A DNA stretch of 64,000 bases from an uncultured Cryomorphaceae bacterium. GTDB taxonomy: Bacteria; Bacteroidota; Bacteroidia; Flavobacteriales; UBA7430. The DNA is taken from positions 5,531 through 69,530 of the forward strand of contig CACDER010000001.1 of NCBI GenBank assembly GCA_902551855.1. Direction: 5' to 3'. Of the stretch, positions 12,613 to 37,927 are shown in pieces. The position numbers and the translations under genes were made by a program. The notes beneath the pieces are model-generated. The model made no database searches, was not told the origin of the DNA, and saw only the letters and a list, made by a program, of their open reading frames with translations. Each line of letters begins with the position of its first letter. Positions within the stretch are counted from its first letter, which is position 1.

Positions 12613-13218
12613 TTAATTATTAATTTCGACTATATTATAATTTTGTATTTTGAGTTTTATATTACTAAATTTTGTTTCTTCATTAATAAAATTAGATGCA
12701 ACAATTATTAGTCTATCATTTTTATAATTATTAATTAAATTTTGAAACCACTTTATATTATCCATATCTAAATTAGAGCAAGGTTCATCAAGTAAAATTA
12801 CTTTAGAATCAAATAATATTGCAAGAGCTAATTTAATTTTTTGTTTTATACCAGAGGAAAAAAATTTAATTTTTTTAAACTTATCTATTTCAATTATTTC
12901 CTCAAATTTCTTTTCATCAAAATTATTTATAAATCTTGAAAATACTCTTTTAAATTTTAAAAGCTCATTTAAGTTCATTTCTTCAATTAAATTTGAATAT
13001 GGAGCAGCGAATGTTATTGAATTTTTGGAATTATTGTAAATAATTTTTCCTTTATTTGGACTAATATAACCTGATATTAGTTTGAGGAAAGTAGATTTTC
13101 CTGAACTATTATTTCCATTAATTGAATATATGTTTTCAGGATAAAAAACTAAATTTAGGTCCTTAAATATGAAATTATCATTATATTTTTTATAAATATT
13201 AAATAACTTTATTTTCAT
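12613..13218 (-). CDS. short orphan ABC-type ATPase with degenerate motifs
   Basis: 201 aa. Walker A (GNNSSGKST) and Walker B (VILLDEP) are present. The signature motif is FSSGIKQK rather than LSGGQ. There is no Gln where the Q-loop is expected and no His anywhere in the protein. Overlaps lpxA by 4 nt. Confidence 0.7.
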   Translation of the reverse strand: MKIKLFNIYKKYNDNFIFKDLNLVFYPENIYSINGNNSSGKSTFLKLISGYISPNKGKIIYNNSKNSITFAAPYSNLIEEMNLNELLKFKRVFSRFINNFDEKKFEEIIEIDKFKKIKFFSSGIKQKIKLALAILFDSKVILLDEPCSNLDMDNIKWFQNLINNYKNDRLIIVASNFINEETKFSNIKLKIQNYNIVEINN

Positions 13219-13994
13219 ATTTTAATACTTTTAACAATACCTCTATTTGAAGATCTTATAAAATCAATAATCAAATTTGAAAATTTCGATTTATTTAGAT
13301 TTGAATTAACATATTTAATTGCTTGAGAGGTGTTTAAATTTGATTGATATATTATTCTGTATATATTTTTAATTTCATTTATATTGTCATTATTAAATCC
13401 TCTTCTTTTTAATCCTATGTTATTTATACCCGTATATCTAAGTGGTTCATGGGCAACTTTTATAAATGGAGGAACATCTTTTCTGACTAAGGATCCTCCT
13501 GATATCATACTATGAGATCCTATTTTTACAAACTGGTGAATTGCTGACAATCCCCCAATAATTCCAAAATCATTAATTATTACATGACCTCCCATAGCTA
13601 CTCCATTGGCTACAACACAATTATTTCCTATGATACAATCATGAGCAATATGAGAATAAGCCATTAACAAACAATTATTTCCGATAATGGTTTTACCCAG
13701 AGCCTTTGTACCCCTATTAATTGTAACACATTCTCTTATTATCGTATTATTTCCAATTATAACAATACTATCCTCTCCTTCAAATTTTAAGTCTTGAGGA
13801 ATACCTGATATTACAGATCCAGGAAATATCTTACAATTATTTCCAATTCTTGCCCCATTCATAATAGTAACATTTGGTCCAATCCAGGTATTATCTCCAA
13901 TAACCACGTCACCATATATTTTTGTAAATGATTCAACAATTACATTTTTGCCAATTTTTGAATTGGGATTTATTGAATTTAAATTATTATTCAT
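13215..13994 (-). CDS. lpxA: acyl-ACP--UDP-N-acetylglucosamine O-acyltransferase
   Basis: 259 aa. Left-handed beta-helix hexapeptide repeats followed by a C-terminal helical domain (GLKRRGF...I). Lies in the lpxD-lpxC/fabZ-lpxA order. Confidence 0.9.
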   Translation of the reverse strand: MNNNLNSINPNSKIGKNVIVESFTKIYGDVVIGDNTWIGPNVTIMNGARIGNNCKIFPGSVISGIPQDLKFEGEDSIVIIGNNTIIRECVTINRGTKALGKTIIGNNCLLMAYSHIAHDCIIGNNCVVANGVAMGGHVIINDFGIIGGLSAIHQFVKIGSHSMISGGSLVRKDVPPFIKVAHEPLRYTGINNIGLKRRGFNNDNINEIKNIYRIIYQSNLNTSQAIKYVNSNLNKSKFSNLIIDFIRSSNRGIVKSIKI

Positions 13995-13998
13995 TAAA

Positions 13999-15399
13999 CT
14001 AATTAATTTTTTTTATTTGGGCCATTAATTCACCTTCTATGACAAGCTTATCTTCAACATAACCTTGTCCAAACATGTGGCAAATACCTCTTCTTATTGG
14101 TGAAATTAGCTCTAAATTAAAAATTATAGTATCACCAGGGACAACAAGTTGTTTAAATTTCACTTTATCAATTTTCATGAAATAAGTGAGATAATTTTCT
14201 GGGTCAGGGACAGAACTTAAAACTAAAATACCACCTACTTGAGCCATAGCTTCAATTTGAATAACTCCCGGTAATACTGGTTTTTTAGGGAAATGTCCCA
14301 TAAAAAATTGTTCATTCATAGTGACATTTTTTAATCCTACTACTTTTGATTTACTAATTGAAAGAATTTTATCAATAAACAAAAAAGGTGGTCTATGAGG
14401 AAGAATTTCCATAATTTTATTTATATCCATAATTGGATTATCAATTGAGTTTTTTTTATCCATATTTTCATTCATTTTTTTATGTAAAATTTTTGTAAAT
14501 TTTGTATTCATATAGTGTCCAGGCTTATATGCAATGACTTTACCAATTAAAGGTCTTCCGAGTAGATAAAGATCGCCAATCAAATCAAGTAATTTATGTC
14601 TACATGCCTCATCATCATAGTAAAGCACATCAATATTATTTAAATATCCTTTGTTAGAAATTGTAATATTTTTAATTCCAAAATATTTTTTAAGTTTTAA
14701 CATATCTGTTTTTGATACATTGTCATCAAGGAAAACTATGGCATTTTTTAAAGATCCCCCTTTAATTAAACCTTTGGATAATAAAGGTTTAATTTCATGA
14801 AAAAAACAAAATGTTCTTGCATTTGCAAATCGATTTTTAAATTCATCTAGACTATTAAGCTCAACTCTTTCTTTATTTAATGATTTTGATTCGTAATCAA
14901 TTGAAACATCAATAGAAAATTTATTAGAGGGAATGATTTCAATTTTTGAACCATTTTTTGGGTCTTCTAAAAGAACTTTGTCTTCAACTTTAAAATAATT
15001 TCTTATTGATTTTTGTTTACTTAAACCAATTGATTCAAATTTTCTTATATATTCAATAGAACTACCATCTAATATTGGTAATTCTTCTGAATCAATTTCA
15101 ATTATTAAATTATCAATTTTTAATCCACAACAAGCTGCGAGTAAATGTTCTACAGTTTTAATTTTAATATTATTTTTTTCAAGTGATGTATTTCGTTCAG
15201 TTTTATATAAATTATCTATTTGAGCTTTAACAATAGGTTTATGAATTAGATCAATTCGCTTGAATAAAATTCCTGAATTTTCTTCAGCAGGTTTAAAAAT
15301 TAAATTTACCTCTCTACCTGAATGAAGTCCAATTCCATGTATATTGAAACTAGAATTAATAGTATGTTGGTAATCCATTATTAAATATTTTTTTTTCAA
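13999..15399 (-). CDS. lpxC/fabZ: bifunctional UDP-3-O-acyl-GlcNAc deacetylase / 3-hydroxyacyl-ACP dehydratase
   Basis: 466 aa. The N-terminal LpxC part has GIGLHSG, TVEHLLAA, HKLLDLIGDL and PGH. The C-terminal FabZ hotdog has LPHRPPFLFID, FFMGHFP..PVLPGV and EAMAQ. The fusion is typical of Bacteroidota. An alternative start at 15378 (MDYQ) is possible. Confidence 0.95.
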   Translation of the reverse strand: MKKKYLIMDYQHTINSSFNIHGIGLHSGREVNLIFKPAEENSGILFKRIDLIHKPIVKAQIDNLYKTERNTSLEKNNIKIKTVEHLLAACCGLKIDNLIIEIDSEELPILDGSSIEYIRKFESIGLSKQKSIRNYFKVEDKVLLEDPKNGSKIEIIPSNKFSIDVSIDYESKSLNKERVELNSLDEFKNRFANARTFCFFHEIKPLLSKGLIKGGSLKNAIVFLDDNVSKTDMLKLKKYFGIKNITISNKGYLNNIDVLYYDDEACRHKLLDLIGDLYLLGRPLIGKVIAYKPGHYMNTKFTKILHKKMNENMDKKNSIDNPIMDINKIMEILPHRPPFLFIDKILSISKSKVVGLKNVTMNEQFFMGHFPKKPVLPGVIQIEAMAQVGGILVLSSVPDPENYLTYFMKIDKVKFKQLVVPGDTIIFNLELISPIRRGICHMFGQGYVEDKLVIEGELMAQIKKIN

Positions 15400-16399
15400 G
15401 CTCTTTTATTCTATTTATCCAGAGAGGAAATTTTTTAAATAGTATATATGATCTTTGAAATTCTTTGATGTTAAACGCAATTGGACCTTGAATAATAGTT
15501 CCAACTTTTTTTATACTTTTTCCAACTCCAGAATTCCCCGAAATTATTGTTTTATTTGCTATGAATAAATGATCTGCGATTGCAACTTTACCGCCTATCA
15601 TACAATTACTGCCAATTTTAGTTGAACCGGCAATGCCCGAATTTCCAGCTATTACTGTATTTTCTCCAATATGAACATTATGTCCAATTTGAATCAAATT
15701 ATCTAACTTAACACCTTTTTCAATAATAGTTGAACCAAAAGTTCCTCTGTCGATACAAGTATTAGAACCAATTTCGACATTGCTTTTAATATGTACATTT
15801 CCAATTTGTGGTATTTTTTTAAAAATATGCTTTTCATTTTTCGTGAAACCAAAACCATCAGACCCAATTATTGAACCACTATGGATAATACAGTTATCCT
15901 CAATTATTGAATTGTCATAAATTTTTGCGCCAGGATAAATAATACAGTTTTTTCCAATTTTAGTATTTTCTCCAATGAAACAATTAGAATTTATTTGGCT
16001 GTTTTCACCAATTTTTACATTTTTTTCAATATTAGTGAAATTTCCAACATAGATATTTTTTCCTAAAATTGATGAATTCTCTATGTGTGCAAACTTCTCA
16101 ATTCCAATTTTAATTTGTTTTTTAAAAATTACATTAATTAAATTAATTAAAGATAATTGAGAATTTTTAACTAAAATGATATTTGTATTTAATTTTTTAT
16201 CAGGAAATATTTTATTATCTATTATGAATGCAGAAGATTTTGATTCAATTATATATTTCAAATATTTTTTCTCTGAAACAAAAGATAATGAATTTTCACA
16301 ACTATTCTGAATCGAGCATATTTTATTGATAACAAGGTCAGGGTCTCCAATTAAATTCCCATTTATTAATTTAGAAATTTCTTTTAATGTTATTTTCAT
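15356..16399 (-). CDS. lpxD: UDP-3-O-acylglucosamine N-acyltransferase
   Basis: 347 aa. N-terminal LpxD-type domain followed by long hexapeptide-repeat beta-helix. Positioned upstream of lpxC/fabZ. Confidence 0.9.
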   Translation of the reverse strand: MKITLKEISKLINGNLIGDPDLVINKICSIQNSCENSLSFVSEKKYLKYIIESKSSAFIIDNKIFPDKKLNTNIILVKNSQLSLINLINVIFKKQIKIGIEKFAHIENSSILGKNIYVGNFTNIEKNVKIGENSQINSNCFIGENTKIGKNCIIYPGAKIYDNSIIEDNCIIHSGSIIGSDGFGFTKNEKHIFKKIPQIGNVHIKSNVEIGSNTCIDRGTFGSTIIEKGVKLDNLIQIGHNVHIGENTVIAGNSGIAGSTKIGSNCMIGGKVAIADHLFIANKTIISGNSGVGKSIKKVGTIIQGPIAFNIKEFQRSYILFKKFPLWINRIKELEKKIFNNGLPTYY

Positions 16400-16420
16400 T
16401 TTAGCTAAAATACAAATTTT

Positions 16421-17662
16421 CTATTCCAAAATATCACTAGGGTAACAAAGAAAATATTTGGAGCTCAAATTATATTGTTTCGAAAGGTTTAAGTATCTAT
16501 TTTCTGTCTTAAAATCAACTATAGTATTATTTTTTAATTTTAATAATATTGGATTATCATTATCATATATCTCGTTGACTATTTTTTTTTGAAATATGAA
16601 ATATTTTAACTCATATTTTGATAATTTATGTTTCTTTATTAATCTGTTTTCAATTAGGTTGATGTATTCTGATTTAAATTTATCATTTTGAATTTCTATT
16701 TTAAGTAAATTTCTATTTATTAACATTCTACATAAATATGATAATATTTTTTCTGATTTTAAAGACCATTCTTTTATTGCATTAAAGATATCATAATCAT
16801 CTAAAGTACAGAATAGGTTTAAAATTTTATCATTTTTTTCAAAATCTAAAATATCAAAGTCTTTTTTAAGAAACTTATCTAAAGTACTTGAACTTTTCAG
16901 TTTATAACCATTTTTAATTAACTCTTTTGCTCTATTTAAAATATTTAGCAGGGTAAATTCAGCTGAAATTACAGTTTTATGAAGATATACTTGCCAGTAC
17001 ATGAATTGTCTAGCAAGTAAAAATTTTTCAATTGAGTATGCTGCCTTATGATCCATAACCAATTTATCTTTATTTAAATCTAACATATCGATTATTCTGT
17101 AAGAATTTATCCTACCCTCTGTCACTCCAGTGAAATAACTATCTCTTTGTAAGTAGTCTAACCTATCAATATCAATTTGAGAAGAGATTAATTGGAAGAA
17201 AAATTTTCTTTTATAATTATTATTAAAAATATCAATTGCTAATGATAATCTTCCTTTAAATTCAATATTCAATTTATTCATTATTATTTTGGAAATTTTT
17301 TCGTGAGACAAATTGTTTACAAGAGTTTTTTCAAGAGCATGAGAAAAAGGTCCGTGGCCAATATCATGAAGTAGGATTGCTAGTAAAACTGCATCTTTCT
17401 CTTCATTAGAAATTTTGAAACCTTTATTTTGAATAGTCTTTATAGCAATATGCATTAAATGCATTGATCCAATTGCATGATGAAATCTTGTATGGTGAGC
17501 TCCAGGATATACTAAATAAGTCAAACCTAATTGACTTATTCTTCTCAATCTTTGAAAATATGGATGTTCAATTACTTTGTATATTAGCTCATTAGGTATA
17601 GATATGAATCCATGAACAGGGTCATTTATAATTTTTTTAGTTTTATTGCTCAAAAATTTCAA
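16421..17662 (-). CDS. HD-domain phosphohydrolase (dNTP triphosphohydrolase-like, COG1078 type)
   Basis: 413 aa with HTRFHHAIGSMHL, LLHDIGHGPFSH and DRLDYLQRDS motifs. Confidence 0.8.
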   Translation of the reverse strand: MKFLSNKTKKIINDPVHGFISIPNELIYKVIEHPYFQRLRRISQLGLTYLVYPGAHHTRFHHAIGSMHLMHIAIKTIQNKGFKISNEEKDAVLLAILLHDIGHGPFSHALEKTLVNNLSHEKISKIIMNKLNIEFKGRLSLAIDIFNNNYKRKFFFQLISSQIDIDRLDYLQRDSYFTGVTEGRINSYRIIDMLDLNKDKLVMDHKAAYSIEKFLLARQFMYWQVYLHKTVISAEFTLLNILNRAKELIKNGYKLKSSSTLDKFLKKDFDILDFEKNDKILNLFCTLDDYDIFNAIKEWSLKSEKILSYLCRMLINRNLLKIEIQNDKFKSEYINLIENRLIKKHKLSKYELKYFIFQKKIVNEIYDNDNPILLKLKNNTIVDFKTENRYLNLSKQYNLSSKYFLCYPSDILE

Positions 17663-24772: not shown

Positions 24773-25330
24773 ATGAGCATTAATGAAATTTTAACAGTAA
24801 GTTTAACGCTTTTTGCAATTATCGATATTTTGGGATCTATTCCTATAATTATTTCATTGAGATCAAAAATTGGCAATATAGAGTCAGGTAAAGCTACTCT
24901 TGCATCTGGTTTAATAATGATAATCTTCTTATTTTTAGGAGAAAAAATACTTCATATAATTGGGATAGATATATCATCCTTTGCAATTGCTGGTGCGATA
25001 GTGATTTTTCTTTTAGCTATTGAAATGATTTTAAACATAGAATTATTTAAATCTGACAAGAATGATCAATCAGGTAGCATAATTCCAATTGCTTTCCCAT
25101 TGATTTCAGGATCAGGTACGTTGACAACAATTATATCTTTAAGATCAACATATTCAATCGAAATTATTTGTATAGGAATCATAATAAATTTATTTTTTGT
25201 TTATTTAGTTTTGAAATCTACAATTAAAATTGAAAAGTTTTTAGGGCAAGGAGGAATTAATGTTTTAAGAAGGGTTTTTGGGATTATTTTGATGGCAATC
25301 TCAATTAAATTAATTCAAATTCATTTATAA
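24773..25330 (+). CDS. MarC family (UPF0056) integral membrane protein
   Basis: 185 aa with 6 TM helices. The FAIIDILGSIPI and PLISGSGTLTT motifs are typical of MarC/UPF0056. Confidence 0.8.
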   Translation: MSINEILTVSLTLFAIIDILGSIPIIISLRSKIGNIESGKATLASGLIMIIFLFLGEKILHIIGIDISSFAIAGAIVIFLLAIEMILNIELFKSDKNDQSGSIIPIAFPLISGSGTLTTIISLRSTYSIEIICIGIIINLFFVYLVLKSTIKIEKFLGQGGINVLRRVFGIILMAISIKLIQIHL

Positions 25331-26458
25331 TTAAAAATTATATTGAATTCTAGTAAATACAGATTTAGTAATATTTTCTGATTTATTAAATACTTTAAGC
25401 CATATATTTTGACTAATTATCATTAAATCAATTTTATTTGATATTGAATAAGTCAATTGAGGACTCAAAAAGATAAAATTTAATTTTTGATCATGGATTA
25501 TGAAAAATCCAATTTGAGCTAAGTCAGTCACAGATTTATTAATTTGATAAGAGAAGTTATATTTAAAAGGCATTGGAGATTTTGCTGACACATTTAAATT
25601 AAATAAATTAAATGAATTAAACTCTGAATAACCAGAATTATAAAGACATCCTAAATTTAAATATAAATTATTTTTAAAAACATAATCTAGGAAAATACTT
25701 CCTACTAATAAGTTATTTTCTGTTGATAATTTTGTTTTGAAAAAAGAAAATTCTCCTTTAAACCCTAATTTAAAAATTTGTCCAGACCATCCTAATCCAA
25801 ATATGTCATCATCTGTATTATCTGCATACAAAAATTGATAATCATATTTAAAGTAATTTAATTTCAATAAAAATGCTTTTATTTTTTCATTAATTACATA
25901 TTCAAATGAATTAAAATTATTTAAATAATATTGAATTCTTATTGCATCATTTCCGGGTCTTTCTATATAATCAAAATCAAAAATATTTAGTTGATTGAAT
26001 AAATCATGAGAATTCCAGAAGTTTTGAATCCCCCAATTGATTCTTTGCTTTCCCATACATATATTTAGTTTATTTTTATCAAATTCAAAATAAATTCTAT
26101 CAATTTGGTTCAAAAGAGCAAATTTTTCTTTTGAGGAAGAAATTGTATTAGGCAAATTAATATTTTGATTTCTAAAATTAAATAAATTTTTTTCCCATTG
26201 AAAGCCTCTAATAAATCTATTTCTAATACCTATTACTGATTTAAAATAATTTCCGTAATATATTTTAGCATTATATCTAAATTGAATTTGATTATCAAAC
26301 CAATAATTTTTATTAAATGTTAAAATATTAAAGTCAGAGTTTATTAAACTGTAAGAGTTGAGATTACTTAAATAATAATCATCAGTATATTCTATTTGAG
26401 ATAAACATATTGATGGAGTTAATGATATTAATATACAAAGTCTGCTAATTTTTTTCAT
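25331..26458 (-). CDS. predicted outer-membrane beta-barrel protein, last gene of the Lol-like ABC operon
   Basis: 375 aa with a signal peptide. Rich in alternating aromatic/polar short strands (Y/F/N/G) and ends ...FTRIQYNF with a C-terminal Phe. Its start overlaps the ATPase stop by 14 nt. No family recognised. Confidence 0.5.
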   Translation of the reverse strand: MKKISRLCILISLTPSICLSQIEYTDDYYLSNLNSYSLINSDFNILTFNKNYWFDNQIQFRYNAKIYYGNYFKSVIGIRNRFIRGFQWEKNLFNFRNQNINLPNTISSSKEKFALLNQIDRIYFEFDKNKLNICMGKQRINWGIQNFWNSHDLFNQLNIFDFDYIERPGNDAIRIQYYLNNFNSFEYVINEKIKAFLLKLNYFKYDYQFLYADNTDDDIFGLGWSGQIFKLGFKGEFSFFKTKLSTENNLLVGSIFLDYVFKNNLYLNLGCLYNSGYSEFNSFNLFNLNVSAKSPMPFKYNFSYQINKSVTDLAQIGFFIIHDQKLNFIFLSPQLTYSISNKIDLMIISQNIWLKVFNKSENITKSVFTRIQYNF

Positions 26459-27128
26459 CTGAAATTATTTTCCCATCTTCAATCGTAATAATTCTTTTAG
26501 CCCTATTTATAACTCTTTGATCATGAGTTGAAAATAAGAAAGTAATATTTTGTTCTTTATTCATTTTTGCCATCAGATCTAATAATTTATTAGTAGATTT
26601 TGAATCTAAATTTGCTGTTGGTTCGTCAGCTAGAATAAATGATGGTTTAGATGCTAAAGCTCTTGCCACAGCAACTCGTTGTTGTTGTCCACCTGATAAT
26701 TGATTTGGTCTAGAATTAATTTTATTTTCTAATCCAACATACTTTAGTAATTCTATGCTTCTTTCTTTTCTTGTTAAGTGATTAATTCCTTGAAGTAACA
26801 TTATGAATTCTACATTTTCAATTGCAGTTAAAACAGGAATTAGATTATATGCTTGGAAAATAAATCCAATATTATTGAGGCGAAAATCAATTAATTCATT
26901 TTCATTCAAATTATTGAGTTTTACATTATTGATAATAACCTCACCTGATGTCAACTTATCTAGTCCTCCAATCATATTTAAAAGAGTAGTTTTTCCTGAC
27001 CCTGAAGGGCCAACAATTGCCGAAAATTCCCCCTTTTCAATATCCAAATTTATTTCATCAATTGCTTTAAAAGATAAATTACTTGAGTTGTATATTTTAA
27101 CTAAGTTTTTTGCAGAAATTATCTTCAT
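26445..27128 (-). CDS. ABC transporter ATP-binding protein, MacB/LolD type
   Basis: 227 aa. Walker A GPSGSGKTT, Q-loop FIFQAYNL, signature LSGGQQQRVAVARAL, Walker B ILADEPTANLD, H-loop STHD. Confidence 0.9.
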   Translation of the reverse strand: MKIISAKNLVKIYNSSNLSFKAIDEINLDIEKGEFSAIVGPSGSGKTTLLNMIGGLDKLTSGEVIINNVKLNNLNENELIDFRLNNIGFIFQAYNLIPVLTAIENVEFIMLLQGINHLTRKERSIELLKYVGLENKINSRPNQLSGGQQQRVAVARALASKPSFILADEPTANLDSKSTNKLLDLMAKMNKEQNITFLFSTHDQRVINRAKRIITIEDGKIISDEKN

Positions 27129-27129
27129 T

Positions 27130-28347
27130 TTATATAGTTTTGATTGCTTCAGTTGGTTTTAATTTAAGTGCCTTTTTTGAAGGAAATATTGATGAAAATA
27201 AAGTAAATACTAATACTAATAATGTTATATAAATGTAATAATTATCATCAATTTTTGGATAAATTGTGCTTGATAATCCAACCGACTCAAGTCCATTTTT
27301 AAATATAGATAAATTTATTCCATTTTTAGACGTCAAATATATGGTTACATAGGCTAGTATCATTCCAAAAGGTCCCCCTATGAGTGATAATATGAATGTT
27401 TCATACAAAATTAAAGTAAAAATTTTAAATTTGTTCATACCAATAGCCATAAGCATACCTAATTCTCTTCTTCTTTCAAAAACAGCCATTAGCATGGTAT
27501 TTATAATTCCAAAAATTAATGCTAACATTATAATTACCATAATGAGAAATAACCAAGTTTCCATAACTTGATCAGCGTAAGCAAGTTCTGGTGCTAGGTT
27601 TTTCCAATTTTCAATTAAATACTCATTTAAGTTTATTTTTAGTTTATTTTCAATAAGATTAAGTTCATTAATATCAGTTAGTAAAATTGCAATTTCATGA
27701 AAACTATTATCATTTGAAATTCTTTGAAAGTCTTCACTTAACAGGAAAATATTTTGTTCATCATATTTAGTATATTGAGTTTTAAAAATACCACAAATTC
27801 TAAATGCACCAGATATAATTTCATTATTGGAATTTTGAAATGTGACTACCACTTTTGACTTTAACTTTACATTTAATCTTTTTGCTAGAGCATCTCCAAT
27901 TAAAACACTGTTTTTTTTCTTTTTTTCAAAGAAATCTCCCTCGATTACTTTTTTACTTATACTAGTTACCAGACTTTCTTTTCTTGGCTCAATACCTATT
28001 ATTTTTACTCCATTACTGTTGATTGTTGAACTTATCATACCTAGAGATAAAGTTCTTTTACAAAATGATTTTATTTGTTTAATCTCATTAACAAATTTTA
28101 CAATCTTATCGTGCTCTTTCAAATTAAATTTGTTATTATAATCTTTTTTAAATTTTGGGTTGTGTATTTGTAAGTGAGAGATTGAGCTGTTAATTGTATC
28201 AGATGTCCTTTGATAGTTAATTCCATAACAAAATGCAATTACAAACAAGCCAGCCCATATACCTAAAGCTATTGAAAAAATAACTACAGATGACCTCAAA
28301 GGAGTTCTCCAAATATTAAGAAAGGCTATTTTAATTATAGTAAACAT
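27130..28347 (-). CDS. ABC transporter permease, FtsX/MacB (type VII) family
   Basis: 405 aa. Layout is TM1, a periplasmic domain of about 220 aa, then TM2-4. The N-terminus IAFLNIWRTPLRS is typical of LolC/E-MacB permeases. Confidence 0.85.
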   Translation of the reverse strand: MFTIIKIAFLNIWRTPLRSSVVIFSIALGIWAGLFVIAFCYGINYQRTSDTINSSISHLQIHNPKFKKDYNNKFNLKEHDKIVKFVNEIKQIKSFCKRTLSLGMISSTINSNGVKIIGIEPRKESLVTSISKKVIEGDFFEKKKKNSVLIGDALAKRLNVKLKSKVVVTFQNSNNEIISGAFRICGIFKTQYTKYDEQNIFLLSEDFQRISNDNSFHEIAILLTDINELNLIENKLKINLNEYLIENWKNLAPELAYADQVMETWLFLIMVIIMLALIFGIINTMLMAVFERRRELGMLMAIGMNKFKIFTLILYETFILSLIGGPFGMILAYVTIYLTSKNGINLSIFKNGLESVGLSSTIYPKIDDNYYIYITLLVLVFTLFSSIFPSKKALKLKPTEAIKTI

Positions 28348-29567
28348 TATATTTTGAGTCCTTTGATTGGTTTTAAGAAAAATATTTTTGTGGATGGATA
28401 AAAGCTACACACTAAAACAATTATTGTAATAATTAAAACATGATTTAAAGCAATATTTAGATCTAACGAAGCAGGGATTATAGGTTCAAACCCATATTCT
28501 TCAATTGCAGAAGCAGCTTTCCCACCTATCCTGTAAGGAAAATAATAAAAGTAATATCTAACAGGCGTTACTAATATTAATCCAATAATTGAGGAAAAAA
28601 AACTCATTAACAAGCATTCTAAAATAACAACTACTACTAGTTTAATTTTATGCATTCCAATAGATATAAGTATTGAAAATTCTTTTATTCTTTCAGTTGT
28701 CATCATAAGTATAGTCCCGAAAATACCAAATGATAAAATCATATATAATATTCCTAGGATTACTAAACCTCCTGCACTATCTGCTTGAATAGTTTGAACT
28801 AACTCAGGAAGAAGATTTTTCCAATTCATTACAACTAAATCTTCATCAAGATTTGATTTTAAAATTTCTATTGTTTTTTCAACTTTAGACTTGTTTTTAA
28901 TATCTATTACCAAAGATGTATTTCTATTTTCTGCATCATATAGAGTCTGAGCAGATTTAATTGGCATAATTATTAGTCTCTCATTTATATCTGGTACAGG
29001 GAATTTAATTATACCTTCTATTTTAAAAATACCACTTGCACTTGAACCATGAAATCCTTGACCAAGAAGAACTATACTGTCATTACATCTAAGATTATAA
29101 TATTCTGATAAACCATCACTAATTAATATGTTTGAGCTAGAATTTTCGGGTATTGAACCTTTAACTATTTTAGAGTTTAAATTCATGAATAAATTTTCTT
29201 TTTCAAGATTTGCTCCTATCACAATTGTTCCCCTTGTTAAGTTGTTTGCAGCACTTAAAGCAAAACTTTCAAACCTTTCGTTAAATGATGATACATTATA
29301 TGAATTGCTTAATTTTTTTTGAAGATTCATATCTACCGCAAAACTATTATCAATAGTTCTCTCATTCCAGTAATCTTTATTTTGGATTTGAATATATCCA
29401 CTGTACATGCCAACCATATTTTCTACCATCTTATCATATACACCAATTTGTAATGATCGGGCAAAAATTGAAAAAAAAACAGCACAAATCATTGATGAAA
29501 TAGTTATAATACTTCTTTGTTTATTTCTCCAAATATTTCGCCAAGCAAGATTTAAATATAGTTTCAT
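28347..29567 (-). CDS. ABC transporter permease, FtsX/MacB (type VII) family (paralogue of 27130..28347)
   Basis: 406 aa with the same TM1 / periplasmic domain / TM2-4 layout. N-terminus LAWRNIWRNKQRS. Shares 1-nt start/stop overlaps with both neighbours. Confidence 0.85.
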   Translation of the reverse strand: MKLYLNLAWRNIWRNKQRSIITISSMICAVFFSIFARSLQIGVYDKMVENMVGMYSGYIQIQNKDYWNERTIDNSFAVDMNLQKKLSNSYNVSSFNERFESFALSAANNLTRGTIVIGANLEKENLFMNLNSKIVKGSIPENSSSNILISDGLSEYYNLRCNDSIVLLGQGFHGSSASGIFKIEGIIKFPVPDINERLIIMPIKSAQTLYDAENRNTSLVIDIKNKSKVEKTIEILKSNLDEDLVVMNWKNLLPELVQTIQADSAGGLVILGILYMILSFGIFGTILMMTTERIKEFSILISIGMHKIKLVVVVILECLLMSFFSSIIGLILVTPVRYYFYYFPYRIGGKAASAIEEYGFEPIIPASLDLNIALNHVLIITIIVLVCSFYPSTKIFFLKPIKGLKI

Positions 29568-30304
29568 TATTTAATTCTTTTCATATTTTGTTTGCTAAAA
29601 AAGTTAGAATTTATATTGATATTAAAATCAATATTATTATAAATTAATGTGGTTTTAGAATCAGGATTTTCATAAATTGGAATGACAGTTATTTTTGAAG
29701 GAAGTTTTTTATTATTAAATAATTTAATTTCTGATAATTTCATGATATTTATAAGTTCACCTTCTTCATCATAAAATTCACTTCTTCTTTGAAAATAAAA
29801 ACTTTTGTCAATGAAGGTTATTATTTTACCCCAAACAACAGGGGCATCATCTTTAGGGATTAATTTGATTTTGAAACATGAACTATTATCAATCAAGGTA
29901 TCGCCTAACAAAAAGTGAGAATAATCATCAAGAATAGAGGATTCTCTAATCAAATCATCATTTGTGAAGTCTGATCCCATCCAAGATTGCATCATCATTG
30001 ATGGAGGCAGTTTAATGATTCTCTCAATTTTAGGCTGCCAATTCCAAATTTCATTCTCCTTTTTTAAAAAGACTGTTCCTCTATCTCTTGAGGGGGCAGT
30101 AATTAAAATTAAAGAATAATTTGTTCCAAGACTCCATGCTTTCAAACTCATTTTTCTTTCCCACTTTGGTCTATTAATTGTAATCGAAATGTCAACTTTT
30201 TGACTATTACCAATAGTATAATTCTGGGATTTTTCAATAATTTCATATGCATTTTGAGCATTTAAGTCAAAACTTAAAAATATTAGAATTATAATTTTTT
30301 TCAT
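29567..30304 (-). CDS. secreted LolA-like 'outer-membrane lipoprotein-sorting' family protein
   Basis: Start set at the internal MKKIIILIFLSFDLNAQ signal peptide, because the 19 upstream codons of the ORF track overlap the preceding gene. The WMGSDFTNDDL motif and the size (245 aa) match the recalled LolA_like family. No lipobox Cys. Confidence 0.65.
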   Translation of the reverse strand: MKKIIILIFLSFDLNAQNAYEIIEKSQNYTIGNSQKVDISITINRPKWERKMSLKAWSLGTNYSLILITAPSRDRGTVFLKKENEIWNWQPKIERIIKLPPSMMMQSWMGSDFTNDDLIRESSILDDYSHFLLGDTLIDNSSCFKIKLIPKDDAPVVWGKIITFIDKSFYFQRRSEFYDEEGELINIMKLSEIKLFNNKKLPSKITVIPIYENPDSKTTLIYNNIDFNININSNFFSKQNMKRIK

Positions 30305-30305
30305 T

Positions 30306-30770
30306 TTAATATTTAATTCCAATTTTATCATAAATAAATGAAAGTAACCAGGCTGGACCAATCATTAAAAAAAAAATATCTTCAAGAAAAGATGGTTTTT
30401 TCCCCTCTATTTTATGTCCAATTAATTGAAAAATCCATGAAAATACAAATATTAACACTGGTAAAATTTCAAAATTTACATTGCTAATGGAATAAATTAT
30501 GTAATAATTAAGAATTGAAAAGATGAACATCCCAATTGCAATTTGTATTGAATAATACAAATAAAATATAATACCAAATAAAATAATAATAAATGCTAGG
30601 TTACATAAATAACTTGGTATTAGTGAACTTAAAAATGTTAATTTTATAAAATAAGTTAACCAGATTATTGAAAAGAAAATTAAAGGAACACAAAGCCAAT
30701 GAATTAACTTATTTATAAAATTTTGATGGCTTTCACCATATATTTCAAAGTAAGTTTTGATACTGGACAT
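30306..30770 (-). CDS. DUF962 / Mpo1-like membrane protein
   Basis: 154 aa with 4 TM helices. The N-terminal HQNFINKLIHWLCVPLIFFS motif and the later GHKIEGKKPSF motif are typical of DUF962. Confidence 0.65.
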   Translation of the reverse strand: MSSIKTYFEIYGESHQNFINKLIHWLCVPLIFFSIIWLTYFIKLTFLSSLIPSYLCNLAFIIILFGIIFYLYYSIQIAIGMFIFSILNYYIIYSISNVNFEILPVLIFVFSWIFQLIGHKIEGKKPSFLEDIFFLMIGPAWLLSFIYDKIGIKY

Positions 30771-31283
30771 TTATGATGTTCTAAAGTTAAATTTATGTTC
30801 TGATAGATCACTATTTGCTTTTAAAATTTTGTCTTTTAAAGACATTTTATATCCAATTAGTTTTTTCATTACCTCTTTATCCCCAGTTCCAATTATTTGC
30901 GTTGCTAAAATAGCAGCATTTTGAGAAGCATCTAAACCAACAGTTGCAACTGGAATTCCAGGGGGCATTTGTAATATTGATAGTATTGAATCCCATCCAT
31001 CAATTGAGATTGAGGATCTGCACGGTACACCAATTATTGGTAAATGAGTAAATGCAGCCATCACTCCTGGTAGGTGAGCTGCACCTCCGGCACCAGCTAT
31101 AATAACTTTTATTTCAGTTTCTAATAATTTTTGTGCATACTCTTCTACTTGTTTAGGAGTTCTGTGAGCAGATAATGCATTGACTTCAAATGGAATTTCT
31201 AGATTATCAAGAAATTTTGCTGCTTTACTCATAACTGGCCAGTCTGATGTACTGCCCATAATAATACTAACTAATGGTTTCAT
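30771..31283 (-). CDS. purE: 5-(carboxyamino)imidazole ribonucleotide mutase
   Basis: 170 aa with IIMGSTSDWPVM, SAHRTP and AGAGGAAHLPGV motifs. Confidence 0.95.
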   Translation of the reverse strand: MKPLVSIIMGSTSDWPVMSKAAKFLDNLEIPFEVNALSAHRTPKQVEEYAQKLLETEIKVIIAGAGGAAHLPGVMAAFTHLPIIGVPCRSSISIDGWDSILSILQMPPGIPVATVGLDASQNAAILATQIIGTGDKEVMKKLIGYKMSLKDKILKANSDLSEHKFNFRTS

Positions 31284-33885: not shown

Positions 33886-35508
33886 ATGAAAAGACTACTT
33901 TATTTATTGATTCTGATTAATACATATCTATTTTCTGAGGAGAACAAACCAAAATTAATTATAGGTTTAATTGTAGATCAGATGAGATATGATTACATAA
34001 ATAGATTTTGGGATGATTTTTCAGATGGAGGATTTAAAAAAATTAAATTAAGTGGTTTTAATTGTAAAAATGCCTCCTTCAGATTTATACCTACTTACAC
34101 TGGTCCTGGACACGCAACTATTTTCACTGGAACTAATCCAAAAAATCATGGAATAATTGCAAATAATTGGTATGAAAGGGATTCTAATGATTATATTTAT
34201 TGTGTTGGAGATGATCAATTCAAAACCATAGGATCTGATAATAATTCAGGAAAAAAGTCACCAAGAAAGATGTTGACTTCTACTTTTGGAGACGAATTGA
34301 GGTTGTCATCTATGTTTAGATCAAAGGTGATTGGTATATCTTTAAAGGATAGAGCAGCAATTTTAACAGCTGGACATACTGCTAACTATGCACTTTGGTT
34401 GGATTCAGAGTCTGGTAATTTTGTAACAAGTTCTTATTATACATCTAAACTTCCTGTTTGGTTAGAAAATTTTAATAATGAAAATTATTGTAAAAAATAT
34501 TTAGATAAAAAATGGAATTTATTATTAAATCCAAAAAAATATGATGAAAGTTTGAATGATAACAGTTCATATGAACAACCATTTAAAGGTGAAAAAAATC
34601 CAAGATTCCCCTATGATTTAAAAAAAATATCTCAAGAAAATGGACTGGCTACGATAAAATATACACCCTATGGAAATTCATTAATATTTGACTTGGCAAA
34701 AAAGGTAATAAAAGAGGAAGATTTAGGTAATGATGATTTTACAGATTTATTATCCATAAGTTTATCTTCCACAGATTATATTGGACACAAGTTTGGCGTT
34801 GATTCAAAAGAAATACACGATACTTATTTAAGGTTAGATAAAGATTTAGATTTATTTCTTGTTTATTTGGACGAAATTTTAGGTATTGAAAATATTTTAA
34901 TTTTTTTAACTTCTGATCATGGTGCAGTTAGGTCTCCATCATACCTGAATGATAGGAAAGTACCTTCTGGATATTTCAATGCTGACAAACCAATTAATGA
35001 TTTAAAAGAATATTTGAATAATATTTATGGTTTTGGAAATTGGATCAAAACTTATGGAAATACCCAAATATATTTGAATAGAGATTTAATTTTTGAAAAT
35101 TTTTTAGATTTATCAAAAATTCAAACTCAATGTTCTAATTTTTTGATTAAGTATGATGGTATTAAAAATGTTATATCTGCAGACGTTATAATTAACAATG
35201 AATTCTCTGAAGGAAATTATAGATCTATTCAACAAGGTTATAACCATAAAAGATCAGGTGATATATTGCTGATTTTAGAGCCCGGTTGGATAGAATATGA
35301 AAAATTAGGAACGACTCATGGTTCAGGATATAGTTATGACCAACATGTCCCATTAATCTGGTATGGGTGGGATGTAAAACCTGGAATATCATCTGATCAA
35401 ATTAGTATTAGTGATATTGCACCAACATTATCAAATATACTTGAAATATCATTTCCAAATGGAACGTCTGGAAATAATAAAATTATCAATATTCCTTTTA
35501 GCGAATAA
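33886..35508 (+). CDS. pafA: alkaline phosphatase / nucleotide pyrophosphatase family, PafA-like
   Basis: 540 aa with a signal peptide. Motifs VDQMRYDY, PTYTGPGHATIFTG (Thr nucleophile context), DYIGHKFG, TSDHG and GTTHGSGYSYDQHVP. Confidence 0.7.
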   Translation: MKRLLYLLILINTYLFSEENKPKLIIGLIVDQMRYDYINRFWDDFSDGGFKKIKLSGFNCKNASFRFIPTYTGPGHATIFTGTNPKNHGIIANNWYERDSNDYIYCVGDDQFKTIGSDNNSGKKSPRKMLTSTFGDELRLSSMFRSKVIGISLKDRAAILTAGHTANYALWLDSESGNFVTSSYYTSKLPVWLENFNNENYCKKYLDKKWNLLLNPKKYDESLNDNSSYEQPFKGEKNPRFPYDLKKISQENGLATIKYTPYGNSLIFDLAKKVIKEEDLGNDDFTDLLSISLSSTDYIGHKFGVDSKEIHDTYLRLDKDLDLFLVYLDEILGIENILIFLTSDHGAVRSPSYLNDRKVPSGYFNADKPINDLKEYLNNIYGFGNWIKTYGNTQIYLNRDLIFENFLDLSKIQTQCSNFLIKYDGIKNVISADVIINNEFSEGNYRSIQQGYNHKRSGDILLILEPGWIEYEKLGTTHGSGYSYDQHVPLIWYGWDVKPGISSDQISISDIAPTLSNILEISFPNGTSGNNKIINIPFSE

Positions 35509-37927
35509 GATAAACCGCTCCATTTTCAGTAAATTTTTTATTAGTTACAGTTGTAAAATTTATTAAGTAGTTGTATGTGTCACTTTTACATTGAATTCCA
35601 TTTCTGTTTTTACCATCCCATCTTGGATTAACTCCATCTTTATCAAAAATTAGCTTACCCCATCTATCAAATATTCTAAGTTGATAATTTTGAATTCCAA
35701 TACAAATTGGTGCAAAAAAATCGTTTTTATTATCATTATTTGGAGTGAAAGAATTAGGCATGAATAAATTATATCCAAAAGAAATATTTATTTTTTTTGA
35801 AATTGAATCTATACATTGATACTCCGAATTTATTGCATACTGAGTAATCTCTATTTCACCAGTTATATCTGGAGTATAAGATGGATTTTCTTCATTCAAA
35901 GTTAAACCTGAGTTGAAGATATAAAATATTGAATCTGAATTTTCTGATTGATTTTCAATTTCTACTGAGACATCAAGAATAAAATCATCTGAATTAAAAG
36001 CAAAATTTGCAATGGGTTTTGGTTGAATTTCAATGTAATTTTCAAAAAAATAAGATTCTGAACATGAAGTACTTAAATCAATAATATTTAAATTTAAATC
36101 GTATTGACCCTCAAAAAATAATATTTCATTGTAATTAAAATTACTAGTCTGACCATTCCCAAAATTCCATTCAAAATTATATTGATTTGAATCTAAATTT
36201 GAACTAATATTAACAATTTGAGGAGAACATCCATATTGATTTGTTAAATTCATTTCAAAGTCTATGGCATCAATAATTTTAATTGAATCAGTTGTATTTC
36301 CTTCACATCCACTGTTGGATATTACAAGTGAAATTATGTGATATCCTTCTGTTAAAAACTGGATATTTGAAGGGTTTTGATCAATTGATTCAAATGTATT
36401 GGAATTATTACCAAAATTCCACAAAAATTCTGAGTTTTCCTCAAAAGTCCCAGATGCTTGAAAGTTAAATGTATTATTTTCAAGGCACTGTATATCATCA
36501 TTTAAAAAAGTGATTTCAGGTAAAATATTATCATTAAAGATGTTAATATTCCCAGTGTGAGTCTCATCGCAACCATTGTATTGTATATTATATGATACTT
36601 CAAAATTTCCAATTCCATCAAATAGTATGTTTGTTGGGTTTACTATTTCTGAATATTGTGGTGAAGCATTGGGTCCAAAATTCCAAATGACATCAGCACC
36701 TGCTGGAGTAATTCCTAGAGCAGTAAAATCAAATAAATTATTACCATCACACTGAGGTGGTGGATCATTAAAAAACGCTGATAGTTCAGTATATAAAGGA
36801 AATGAAATACTATTAGTGTCAGCACATATTGTATTTGGATTTGCAATTAATGTCACATTATATATTCCAGTATCTGGATAAGTGAAACTTGGTTCAAATA
36901 ATTCTGATATATTATTTTCATATCCAAAATCCCAAAGGTATGTTTCTGCATTATAACTATCATTTTCAAAATCTACAGTTAGAGAATTACAATACCAATT
37001 ATTGAGTGGGAAGGAGGCAGTTGTTACATTACAATCCACAACCAAAAATCTAAAATCTCTAATTACTTGATTTAAGAAAATCCCATTTCTAAATTCGCTT
37101 ACCTTTATCCCAATTATGTATAGACCAATCTGATTTGGAGTGCCAGTTATTATTCCAGTTTCAGAATTAATTGAAATAATAGGATCACTATCAATTGGGT
37201 AATTTTCACTGTAACCATCATTCCATGGTATGATATTGAATGGAGGAGGACTTGTTTCAGTGGGATTCATATCATTAGCACCATTTAAAGGTGTTGTGAA
37301 TTCATATACAAGTTCATCACCGTCAATATCTGTGGCTGAATGATTAATGTTAATTTCATCACCTAAACAAAGAGCCAGAGGAGGATAATTAATAAAGTTT
37401 GCACTGCTATTATTATTTAAATTTCCTCCAGGAATATTTACATAAAAAGTAGAACCGAAATCTTCAGGATTTTCAATATTTATAACTGATGGATTTCTAC
37501 AACATCTTTGGTAAGCTATTGTGTATCCTTCATTAGAATTAGGTAGAAAAATATCGAAACTATAAGTCCCCCTTTCTACACATAGATCAGTTGGAAGTTC
37601 TAAACAATCATTACCAACCGTTTCGTTACCTAAATTTATAATATTGGGATTTGATATATCAACTATATCATATATAGAATTATCACCATTGTAAATTGTT
37701 ACTTCTCCAAATGGGTCAAAACTTGTTCCAGAAGTATTGGATGGGCCACAATCAATGTATATTACAAGATTAATTTGGTAAATATTATTTCCTAAATAAT
37801 TGTATGTCATTTCACCTCCAATTAGATGAGTAGCATTTAATTTTAGTGAATTTAAAATTATAAAACTTATACATAAAAGCTTTTTCAAAATATATTTAGT
37901 TTTTAATATTATTATTTTTTTTGACAA
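35498..37927 (-). CDS. T9SS type B (gliding-motility-associated) C-terminal-domain cargo protein with PKD-like repeats
   Basis: 809 aa with a signal peptide. N-terminal THLIGGEMTY module, then four W-x-F-G PKD-like repeats (LWDFGYEN, IWNFGPNA, LWNFGNNS, EWNFGNGQ). C-terminus PNSFTPNNDNKNDFF...RIFDRWGKLIF...WDGKNRNG...GAVYLIR matches the type B sorting domain. Confidence 0.8.
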   Translation of the reverse strand: MSKKIIILKTKYILKKLLCISFIILNSLKLNATHLIGGEMTYNYLGNNIYQINLVIYIDCGPSNTSGTSFDPFGEVTIYNGDNSIYDIVDISNPNIINLGNETVGNDCLELPTDLCVERGTYSFDIFLPNSNEGYTIAYQRCCRNPSVINIENPEDFGSTFYVNIPGGNLNNNSSANFINYPPLALCLGDEININHSATDIDGDELVYEFTTPLNGANDMNPTETSPPPFNIIPWNDGYSENYPIDSDPIISINSETGIITGTPNQIGLYIIGIKVSEFRNGIFLNQVIRDFRFLVVDCNVTTASFPLNNWYCNSLTVDFENDSYNAETYLWDFGYENNISELFEPSFTYPDTGIYNVTLIANPNTICADTNSISFPLYTELSAFFNDPPPQCDGNNLFDFTALGITPAGADVIWNFGPNASPQYSEIVNPTNILFDGIGNFEVSYNIQYNGCDETHTGNINIFNDNILPEITFLNDDIQCLENNTFNFQASGTFEENSEFLWNFGNNSNTFESIDQNPSNIQFLTEGYHIISLVISNSGCEGNTTDSIKIIDAIDFEMNLTNQYGCSPQIVNISSNLDSNQYNFEWNFGNGQTSNFNYNEILFFEGQYDLNLNIIDLSTSCSESYFFENYIEIQPKPIANFAFNSDDFILDVSVEIENQSENSDSIFYIFNSGLTLNEENPSYTPDITGEIEITQYAINSEYQCIDSISKKINISFGYNLFMPNSFTPNNDNKNDFFAPICIGIQNYQLRIFDRWGKLIFDKDGVNPRWDGKNRNGIQCKSDTYNYLINFTTVTNKKFTENGAVYLIR

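Follow-up and report, generated by a model that had tools for sequence, protein, structure and literature searches.

Gene content and layout of the operon

The stretch of DNA analysed here (hereafter the window: 64,000 nucleotides (nt), positions 5,531 to 69,530 of contig CACDER010000001.1, assembly GCA_902551855.1) comes from an uncultured Cryomorphaceae bacterium. Its minus strand carries a tightly packed set of genes for a LolA-like periplasmic carrier, two FtsX-type permeases, an ATP-binding cassette (ABC) ATPase and an outer-membrane β-barrel, and the kinship and probable role of these five proteins are the subject of this study. A first-pass annotation, made from the sequence alone, had described them, together with a preceding DUF962/Mpo1-like gene, as a self-contained Lol-like envelope module. 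Direct reading of the sequence upheld its six minus-strand open reading frames (ORFs), running from 30770 to 25331, and the tightness of their junctions (Table 1). The Mpo1-like and carrier genes are separated by 1 nt (TAA-A-ATG), TAATG forms a 1-nt overlap at both the carrier/permease 1 and the permease 1/permease 2 junctions, and a gap of 1 nt lies between permease 2 and the ATPase. The start of the barrel gene overlaps the stop of the ATPase gene by 14 nt, as had been reported, which suggests translational coupling of the two. The purE gene (30771-31283, minus strand) adjoins the Mpo1-like gene with a gap of 0 nt, so that seven genes lie head to tail. A scan of the cluster found no internal terminator. 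A sigma-70 promoter scan, which does not model Bacteroidota promoters, gave 59 matches against 56.5 in shuffled sequences, an indistinguishable result.

Table 1 Features of the operon and the evidence on which each assignment is based.
Feature	Position	Strand	Basis
Mpo1-like/DUF962 membrane protein, 154 residues	30306..30770	-	PF06127, E 2.7e-15
Periplasmic LolA-superfamily carrier, 245 residues, TP_0789-like/PF17131	29567..30304	-	Pfam, AlphaFold2 model, Foldseek
Carrier invariant motif KLPPSMMMQSWMGSDFTNDDL, residues 98-118	29951..30013	-	Alignment; translation checked
Permease 1, 406 residues, FtsX/MacB-type	28347..29567	-	FtsX PF02687
Permease 2, 405 residues, FtsX/MacB-type with MacB_PCD	27130..28347	-	PF02687 and PF12704
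ABC ATPase, 227 residues, MacB/LolD/DevA type	26445..27128	-	ABC_tran, E 5e-34
Predicted outer-membrane β-barrel, 375 residues, probable distant DUF1302 relative	25331..26458	-	AlphaFold2, Foldseek, family profile
Barrel invariant motif GKQRINWG..WNSHDLFN..FDFDYIERPGNDA	25943..26053	-	Alignment; translation checked
ATPase stop/barrel start overlap, 14 nt	26445..26458	-	Read from sequence

The carrier and the barrel

The carrier matches PF17131 (LolA_like, now TP_0789-like) at E 3e-50, with 170.8 bits against a gathering score of 30 and coverage of profile positions 2-184 of 184. This is its sole Pfam match, and no match to the LolA family PF03548 was obtained. Its AlphaFold2 (AF2) model has a predicted local distance difference test score (pLDDT) of 85.9, and Foldseek identifies the LolA-superfamily fold, an open β-barrel whose hydrophobic cavity is closed by helices; the LolA/LolB-like fold anticipated for this gene was thus recovered by Pfam, modelling and structure search. 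The closest structures, with TM-scores of 0.72-0.79, are NE2245 (3buu), Porphyromonas gingivalis LolA3 (LolA3-PG; 9tp6), a DUF1329 protein (4z48) and Vibrio 3bk5, whereas canonical LolA and LolB structures score 0.40-0.56, even though many of them are returned with probability 1.0. The carrier family profile also matches the 9tp6 sequence at E 6.5e-25. The carrier belongs to the TP_0789/"LolA3" branch of the superfamily and is not a LolA.

The most conserved part of the carrier is the motif KLPPSMMMQSWMGSDFTNDDL, in which 18 of 21 positions are invariant across a 24-sequence alignment. It includes WMGSDFTNDDL, the segment from which the family had been recognized in the first place, and lines up with FMGSDFTYDDM of LolA3-PG, giving the common pattern [WF]MGSDFT.DD. 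Residues 105-117, which fall inside the motif, are the only low-confidence stretch of the model (pLDDT <50). By analogy with LolA3-PG, the motif may form a mobile lid over the hydrophobic groove.

The start of the carrier gene is ambiguous. The longest ORF begins at TTG 30361 (264 residues), and a public gene call gives 254 residues and overlaps the Mpo1-like gene; the start at ATG 30304 (245 residues) is favoured by the homologues and by the signal peptide.

The barrel protein has no Pfam or NCBIfam family match of its own, but its AF2 model, built from a 28-sequence alignment, is confident (pLDDT 87.8, predicted TM-score 0.80). The DSSP string contains 18 strands, with periplasmic turns of 2-5 residues and longer loops on the opposite side, and a Foldseek search of the PDB returned outer-membrane barrels only, at E down to 3e-11. 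The highest TM-scores (0.57-0.59) were to Campylobacter MOMP, OccK7, OccAB4 and AlgE, all of 18 strands, compared with about 0.47 for 16-strand porins. The C-terminal Phe (F375), previously pointed out as a signature of outer-membrane barrels, is at least 90% conserved in the family. Most of the invariant columns cluster in G136-D171 (GKQRINWG..WNSHDLFN..FDFDYIERPGNDA), which spans the end of strand 5, a 31-residue third loop (L3) and the start of strand 6, with residues 139-169 non-strand in the model. This L3-type loop could fold towards the lumen as a constriction or plug, as in porins.

Both proteins carry predicted type I signal peptides, ending A|Q in the carrier and S|Q in the barrel. 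Neither family has a conserved Cys, and the carrier has no lipobox, in agreement with its initial description as a secreted protein lacking a lipobox Cys. From their signal peptides and the lack of a conserved Cys, the carrier and the barrel are predicted not to be lipoproteins. The Gln after the cleavage site is conserved in the carrier family and invariant in the barrel family (Q21).

A Gln thus stands first after the predicted A/S|Q cleavage site in both proteins and in nearly all homologues (30254-30304 and 26396-26458). An N-terminal pyroglutamate is a habit of Bacteroidota and fits this arrangement.

The permeases and the ATPase

Hydropathy analysis of both permeases confirmed the proposed layout of one transmembrane (TM) segment, a periplasmic domain of about 220 residues and three further segments (TM2-4); in permease 1, these lie near residues 18-36, 268-286, 310-328 and 372-390. 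The two proteins are paralogous, with 26% identity (BLASTP E 7e-39). Pfam detects FtsX in both and MacB_PCD in permease 2, and in Echinicola both permeases carry PF12704 and PF02687. The best PDB sequence matches of permease 2 are LolF and LolE (E ~1e-16 to 1e-15), followed by MacB and YtrF. The ATPase is of the MacB/LolD type that had been assigned to it: its Walker A, Q-loop, signature, D-loop and H-switch were found by regular expression, and Walker B, which the expression missed, was read by eye as FILADEP.

None of these proteins reaches a Lol equivalog cut-off. Against TIGR02212 (lolCE; cut-off 362.45 bits), permease 1 scores 70.6 and permease 2 138.5 bits; the ATPase scores 236.7 bits against LolD TIGR02211 (cut-off 307.75), 230.0 against DevA and 211.7 against MacB. 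As all three NCBIfam equivalog cut-offs are missed and the carrier is not PF03548, the operon does not encode a canonical Lol system. The LolC/E-type label first given to the permeases is therefore apt for their FtsX/MacB build and for the combination of two paralogues with one ATPase, but does not hold at the level of Lol equivalogs.

Conservation of a five-gene unit in Bacteroidota

The barrel family counts 690 cluster representatives among 1.84 billion at a threshold of E <=1e-30, and relaxing this to E <=1e-3 brings the number to 3,612. We scanned species-representative genomes with the barrel and listed 80 loci, and at least 592 stretches were confirmed as relatives. All 80 listed loci belong to Bacteroidota (Flavobacteriales, Cytophagales, Chitinophagales/Saprospiraceae and Bacteroidales). 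Synteny was counted in the 63 listed loci with at least 5.2 kb upstream of the barrel. In 58 of them, from four Bacteroidota orders, the five genes are colinear with those of the window, from the carrier through permease 1, permease 2 and the ATPase to the barrel, so the barrel is syntenic with the transporter in related genomes as it is in the window. The upstream permease is always closest to permease 1 and the next one to permease 2; the constancy of this order argues that the heterodimer is ancient. According to the gene calls, the 14-nt ATPase/barrel overlap recurs in L001 (a 49%-identical relative), in the Echinicola locus L003 and in L087, and is 17 nt long in L004. By a heuristic count, ATPase and barrel genes overlap in 24 of 61 loci and lie within 30 nt of each other in most of the rest.

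The core unit comprises these five genes and not the Mpo1-like gene. The latter stands beside the module only in the window and in L001 and L002, relatives of about 50% identity; it is absent from Echinicola L003, from the distant L004 and from all 80 listed genome loci. The Mpo1-like gene is a lineage-specific neighbour. The annotation had counted it as a member of the unit and read it as a hint of a lipid cargo; this hint falls because the gene is not conserved with the module.

In 33 of the 63 loci, the gene just upstream of the carrier gene, with the same orientation and at a median gap of 38 nt, encodes a TetR_N regulator (PF00440, E 6e-18; about 190 residues). Clustering of flanking ORFs in 65 loci identified TetR as the only recurrent flanking family, the next families occurring in at most 7 loci, and returned no recurrent biosynthetic neighbours that would name a cargo. 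No HlyD or membrane-fusion protein (MFP) adaptor gene and no TolC/OEP gene is present in the operon or among the recurrent neighbours. The regulator is absent from the window locus; the streamlined genome has presumably lost it.

Saprospiraceae show several variants of the arrangement. Permease 1 is duplicated in L011 (5076-8966), which has three permease genes; in L046 some 5 kb separate barrel and ATPase; and in L056, L060 and L063 the 10 kb upstream of the barrel contain no transporter, which leaves the barrel an orphan.

Comparison with the Lol pathway

Escherichia coli LolCDE-LolA-LolB likewise combines two paralogous 4-TM permeases of about 400 residues with large periplasmic domains, a separate ATPase and a soluble carrier of the LolA fold that is exported by a type I signal peptide. 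The system described here differs in that its outer-membrane partner is an 18-strand integral barrel and not the LolB lipoprotein, its carrier is larger than LolA and belongs to PF17131 instead of PF03548, and all five genes are in one operon, often under TetR. LolA1 and LolB1 homologues are present in all Bacteroidota species analysed (PMC11885536), and a functional LolB has been demonstrated in Bacteroides and P. gingivalis (PMC12889592, PMC13103446). Flavobacterium species carry the module according to our genome scan; it presumably coexists with LolA1/LolB1 in this genus, a comparison that crosses species. We regard the module as a probable paralogue of the housekeeping Lol system, distinct from it and not its replacement. 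A barrel standing where Proteobacteria use LolB is not the nearest comparison: Bacteroidota own LolA1 and LolB1, and the closest relatives of the carrier and barrel are the DUF1329/LolA3 and DUF1302 pairs discussed below.

These observations bear on the possibility that the operon is simply the housekeeping LolCDE and LolA of this organism, with an unrelated porin adjoining. The two LolC/E-like permeases with one ATPase, as in E. coli, would fit, and a window-wide phmmer search found no further FtsX permease, LolA-like gene or other module paralogue, although a window of only 64 kb makes this absence say little. The equivalog cut-offs, however, are missed by wide margins, the carrier resembles LolA3 and DUF1329 proteins in structure more closely than it does any LolA, and linkage of the barrel at 58 of 63 loci, in many cases by an overlap of reading frames, argues that it is no chance neighbour. 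Together with the presumed coexistence of both systems in the genus Flavobacterium, this makes a housekeeping role very improbable.

A carrier and barrel pair probably shared with MMPL- and RND-driven clusters

Sixteen of the 28 barrel family members match DUF1302 (PF06980), three of them above the gathering score (27-29 bits against 23.2), and these matches are confined to the invariant motif, at profile positions 154-233 of 541. The LolA3-PG sequence was recovered from a PDB alignment and then used to find relatives. In Bacteroides zoogleoformans, the order at the locus is MMPL, LolA3 and a DUF1302 barrel of 420 residues. In Porphyromonas macacae (L086, 2883-12556), the genes are TetR, MMPL, a 136-residue ORF, a SAM methyltransferase, LolA3, DUF1302 (411 residues) and two ABC_membrane-type exporters, a content which hints that this sister system handles a modified small molecule. 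When the window barrel family was compared by hhalign with the P. macacae DUF1302 barrel beside LolA3, the two aligned over 308 colinear columns (85.8% probability, E 5e-6), with GRQRINWG of the former on GRQLIIWG of the latter. The colinear barrel alignment and the adjacency of LolA3 and DUF1302 genes point to a homologous carrier/barrel pair common to ABC- and MMPL-driven clusters. Carrier and barrel would thus be a portable outer-membrane-proximal pair that has a type VII ABC engine in the module and MMPL/RND transporters in Bacteroidales and Proteobacteria.

Clusters of this kind, with an adjacent homologous carrier and barrel as here, include AmeABCD of Castellaniella, PP_0765/0766 of Pseudomonas putida, Sama_1588-1591 and P. 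gingivalis PG1178-PG1181. They share with the module an inner-membrane transporter that would act on hydrophobic substrates and, in many cases, a TetR gene (PMC10434189). The engine differs: the DUF1302/DUF1329 clusters use a proton-motive COG1033 transporter of the MMPL or resistance-nodulation-division (RND) type, whereas the present module has an ABC heterodimer and ATPase without RND/MMPL; MMPL was seen in L085 and L086. The proteobacterial proteins are also larger, about 600 residues for DUF1302 and 450 for DUF1329 (PMC6394551) compared with 375 and 245 for the barrel and carrier here, and the carrier is only about 21% identical to DUF1329/LolA3-type carriers. Proteobacterial clusters contain a BNR/Ycf48-like protein (bioRxiv 10.1101/072470), which is found neither among the module genes nor among their recurrent neighbours.

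The LolA3 proteins of P. gingivalis (PGN0947, 9tp6) and Flavobacterium johnsoniae (Fjoh_0605) share both Pfam family and fold with the carrier (TM-scores 0.77-0.79). LolA3-PG, which also matches DUF1329, is encoded in an MMPL operon and not an ABC operon (PMC10434189), and the long, lysine-rich C-terminal tail of Fjoh_0605 (PMC11885536) has no counterpart in the carrier. The Arg and Leu features that mark LolA and LolB are missing from LolA3-PG (PMC13103446, PMC11885536), which binds LolB-PG weakly or not at all (PMC13103446), and deletion of lolA3 in F. johnsoniae has no phenotype (PMC11885536).

The phenotypes recorded for these relatives are varied. P. gingivalis PG1175-PG1181 are induced 13- to 136-fold by iron depletion and are among the most over-expressed genes under hemin limitation (PMC10434189, PMC10470040). 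The proteobacterial DUF1302, DUF1329, BNR and RND genes show cofitness and pleiotropic envelope phenotypes, and export of a cell-wall component was proposed for them (bioRxiv 10.1101/072470). Growth on monoterpenes depends on AmeB, the DUF1329 protein of AmeABCD (PMC6394551), and growth on fatty esters on PP_0765/0766 (bioRxiv 10.1101/2020.07.04.188060).

Proposed transport pathway and cargo

Building on the observed gene content, folds, homologies, synteny and TetR linkage, we propose that the operon represents a Bacteroidota-wide module of five co-translated genes that moves a lipid or small hydrophobic cargo by way of the ABC transporter, the carrier and the barrel, a reading to which we assign a probability of roughly 55%. 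The two paralogous MacB/LolCE-type permeases would form, with two copies of the ATPase, a type VII ABC heterodimer, in which ATP-driven motion of the periplasmic domains would expel a hydrophobic or amphipathic substrate present either at the outer face of the inner membrane or in the periplasm. The LolA-superfamily carrier would take up this cargo, its flexible lid motif gating the hydrophobic groove, and dock on the dedicated 18-strand DUF1302-type barrel. There, the L3-type loop may form a passage or plug, and the cargo would either be placed in the outer membrane or cross it. For the physical hand-off, the direction of transport and the class of cargo we argue by analogy; outward expulsion into the carrier, in particular, would follow the established behaviour of the type VII ABC transporters MacB and LolCDE. 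The route from inner-membrane extractor to soluble carrier to outer-membrane barrel that had been suggested at the outset stands in its architecture (type VII ABC transporter, LolA fold, barrel), without the analogy between barrel and LolB.

A lipid or small hydrophobic molecule is the most likely cargo, ahead of lipoproteins in bulk. It is favoured by the ligand-sensing repressor of TetR type at the head of half of the related operons; DevA, which energizes a glycolipid exporter, ranks second among the NCBIfam matches of the ATPase and points the same way, as do the phenotypes of the RND-linked relatives.

In MacAB-TolC, mechanotransmission acts on periplasmic substrates. This pump has the MacB periplasmic core domain and FtsX domain that are also present in permease 2, but in the module the ATPase is unfused, the permeases form a heterodimer, and neither a membrane-fusion adaptor nor TolC is encoded. 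The five genes might nonetheless serve the efflux of drugs, toxins or antimicrobial peptides in the manner of MacAB-TolC, with carrier and barrel replacing adaptor and TolC. Efflux pumps are commonly under TetR-type regulators, such as the one at the head of half of the related operons, and since other MacB-type systems of Bacteroidota come with adaptor and TolC genes (PMC12094164), the module would be a variant architecture. Adaptor and TolC genes, however, are missing from the conserved flanks as well as from the operon, a soluble carrier whose hydrophobic groove is closed fits a lipid-like cargo and not a continuous duct, and the strict phylum-wide conservation of the carrier and barrel motifs suggests one specific endogenous cargo. 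We regard drug efflux as rather unlikely; it overlaps with the proposed lipid or small-molecule pathway and differs from it solely in that the cargo would be xenobiotic instead of endogenous.

The three tiers of the proposed pathway also recall the Mla system, which consists of an outer-membrane barrel complex (MlaA-OmpC/F), a soluble periplasmic lipid carrier (MlaC) and an inner-membrane ABC transporter (MlaFEDB). The likeness is one of architecture only: the components are not homologous, and Pfam detects no MlaE, MCE or MlaC-type domain in the six proteins. A Mla-like role would be inward, with the barrel admitting hydrophobic nutrients or membrane lipids, the carrier shuttling them and the ABC transporter delivering them to the inner membrane for use or salvage. 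Besides the layout of barrel, soluble lipid carrier and ABC transporter, the nearest barrel folds fit this possibility, as they include the substrate-specific uptake channels OccK and OccAB. The characterised type VII ABC transporters (MacB, LolCDE), on the other hand, expel substrates from the periplasmic side, and none is known to us to import; the absence of MCE and MlaC-type components likewise counts against uptake. Growth on Tween 20, butyl stearate and monoterpenes depends on DUF1302 and DUF1329 genes (bioRxiv 10.1101/2020.07.04.188060; PMC6394551), which would suit uptake, but the authors of the AmeABCD study read their system as efflux (PMC6394551). On balance, inward transport appears improbable.

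A lipoprotein cargo deserves consideration because of the F. johnsoniae mutant that lacks all five LolA/LolB homologues: it is viable and still exposes lipoproteins on its surface (PMC11885536), so another route must exist, and a likely alternate system has also been invoked in a preprint on Bacteroides LolB (PMC12889592). The heterodimer could extract a subset of lipoproteins (e.g. surface-bound ones), the carrier could ferry their acyl chains, and the barrel could insert or flip them, independently of LolA1 and LolB1. LolF and LolE as the best PDB matches of the permeases, lolCE and LolD as the best NCBIfam matches, the LolA-superfamily fold of the carrier, and the retention of a phylum-wide module in a streamlined 25%-GC genome would all be in keeping with this role. 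A comparable function has been proposed computationally for Borrelia BBJ23-BBJ29, a cluster with a MacB-like ABC transporter, the LolA-like BBJ28 and the Omp85-family BBJ25, thought to export lipoproteins or a non-polar ligand (PMC13078400). The Borrelia cluster differs from the module in its permease homodimer, its Omp85 protein in place of a DUF1302-type barrel, its TPR proteins, its plasmid location and its host, a spirochaete. Several observations disfavour a lipoprotein route: the scores fall far under the Lol equivalog cut-offs; TetR control, indicated at half of the loci, is what one expects of a small-molecule efflux or export system and not of a housekeeping pathway for protein sorting; the sister protein LolA3-PG lacks the Arg and Leu features and LolB binding, and the F. 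johnsoniae lolA3 deletion is silent (PMC13103446, PMC11885536); and the MMPL/RND relatives of the carrier/barrel pair are tied to growth on terpenes and esters (PMC6394551; bioRxiv 10.1101/2020.07.04.188060). We therefore consider a LolA1/LolB1-independent lipoprotein route through the module unlikely. The fuller claim that the module is the missing route of this kind in Bacteroidota, notably for surface-exposed lipoproteins and with the DUF1302-type barrel as insertase or flippase, is improbable.

Several points weigh against the proposed lipid or small-molecule pathway as well. The window barrel itself gave no match to the DUF1302 model at E <=1, and the DUF1302 link comes from homologues and one profile comparison of moderate probability (85.8%). 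The possible roles of the carrier lid and of the lumen-facing L3 are drawn from secondary-structure strings, in the first case with LolA3-PG and in the second with porins as the analogue. About half of the loci, and the window too, lack TetR, and the bearing of the regulator on the cargo is indirect. The closest characterised permeases by sequence, LolF and LolE, are lipoprotein extractors.

The database labels of the individual parts are known already, as is the general logic of the Lol, MacAB and DUF1302/DUF1329 systems. In the literature searched, we found no description of an ABC-driven module of this kind in Bacteroidota, of its five-gene synteny, of the TetR link or of the homology between barrel and DUF1302, and a search for an assigned function among close homologues, such as might have overturned the original reading, returned none.

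Genomic setting

Downstream of the operon, a convergent MarC-family gene (24773-25330, plus strand) ends where the barrel gene ends: the two stops touch at 25330/25331 with 0 intergenic bases, and no terminator-like hairpin was found between them. Scans of the 64-kb window for tRNAs and Rfam families gave no match. Given the lack of any intergenic base at the barrel/MarC junction and of tRNA or Rfam matches in 64 kb, the genome is extremely compact; the GC content of the window is about 25%. Over the part compared, about 21 kb around the module, the window is identical to a 125-kb metagenome scaffold from Tara Oceans, and the host is therefore an uncultivated, streamlined marine flavobacterium and not an endosymbiont.

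At the other end, purE and the Mpo1-like gene (30306-31283, minus strand) stand at the front of the operon only in the lineage of the window and its relatives of about 50% identity. One transcription unit may here combine purine biosynthesis with an orphan membrane protein and envelope transport.

In three relatives, a large convergent gene of the Peptidase_C25 (gingipain) family lies just downstream of the barrel (L001, 11189-14539; L002, 6403-9753; L003 of Echinicola marina, 13139-16741). In the marine flavobacterial relatives L001 and L002, its product also carries a sorting domain of the type IX secretion system (T9SS); the window has MarC at this place. The recurrence could reflect chance or a conserved neighbourhood.

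The window also encodes the T9SS translocon protein SprA (2409 residues; SprA_N E 1.5e-195; 55159-62388, plus strand) and a PKD/CHU_C type IX secretion substrate of 809 residues (35498-37927, minus strand). This streamlined organism thus keeps a T9SS. A 201-residue ABC ATPase (12613-13218, minus strand) lies between lpxA (13215-13994) and efp (12035-12601) without an adjacent permease; it was considered as a LolD and rejected, its best NCBIfam matches being unrelated ABC families, none of them at cut-off.

Implications

Bacteroidota are dominant in polysaccharide turnover in the gut and the sea, and their outer membrane is packed with lipoproteins and unusual lipids. How lipoproteins and lipids are delivered to this membrane is partly known, and an alternative route has been called for (PMC11885536, PMC12889592). 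The three-tier module is kept even in a streamlined marine genome of 25% GC. Were the lipoprotein route to prove correct after all, it would explain the viability of the F. johnsoniae quintuple mutant and its surface lipoproteins (PMC11885536).

The homology of carrier and barrel to the DUF1329/LolA3 and DUF1302 pair would unite a set of orphan systems: the iron-limitation-induced operons of oral pathogens, the proteobacterial genes for growth on terpenes and esters, and the abundant TP0789 of Treponema. Each would contain a LolA-like carrier, with a dedicated barrel as the partner in the shared pair, pluggable into either an ABC or an MMPL/RND engine. This shared-pair view yields testable hypotheses on the ligand of the TetR regulator, on the ligand of the carrier and on the surfaces, at the two invariant motifs, through which carrier and barrel would dock.

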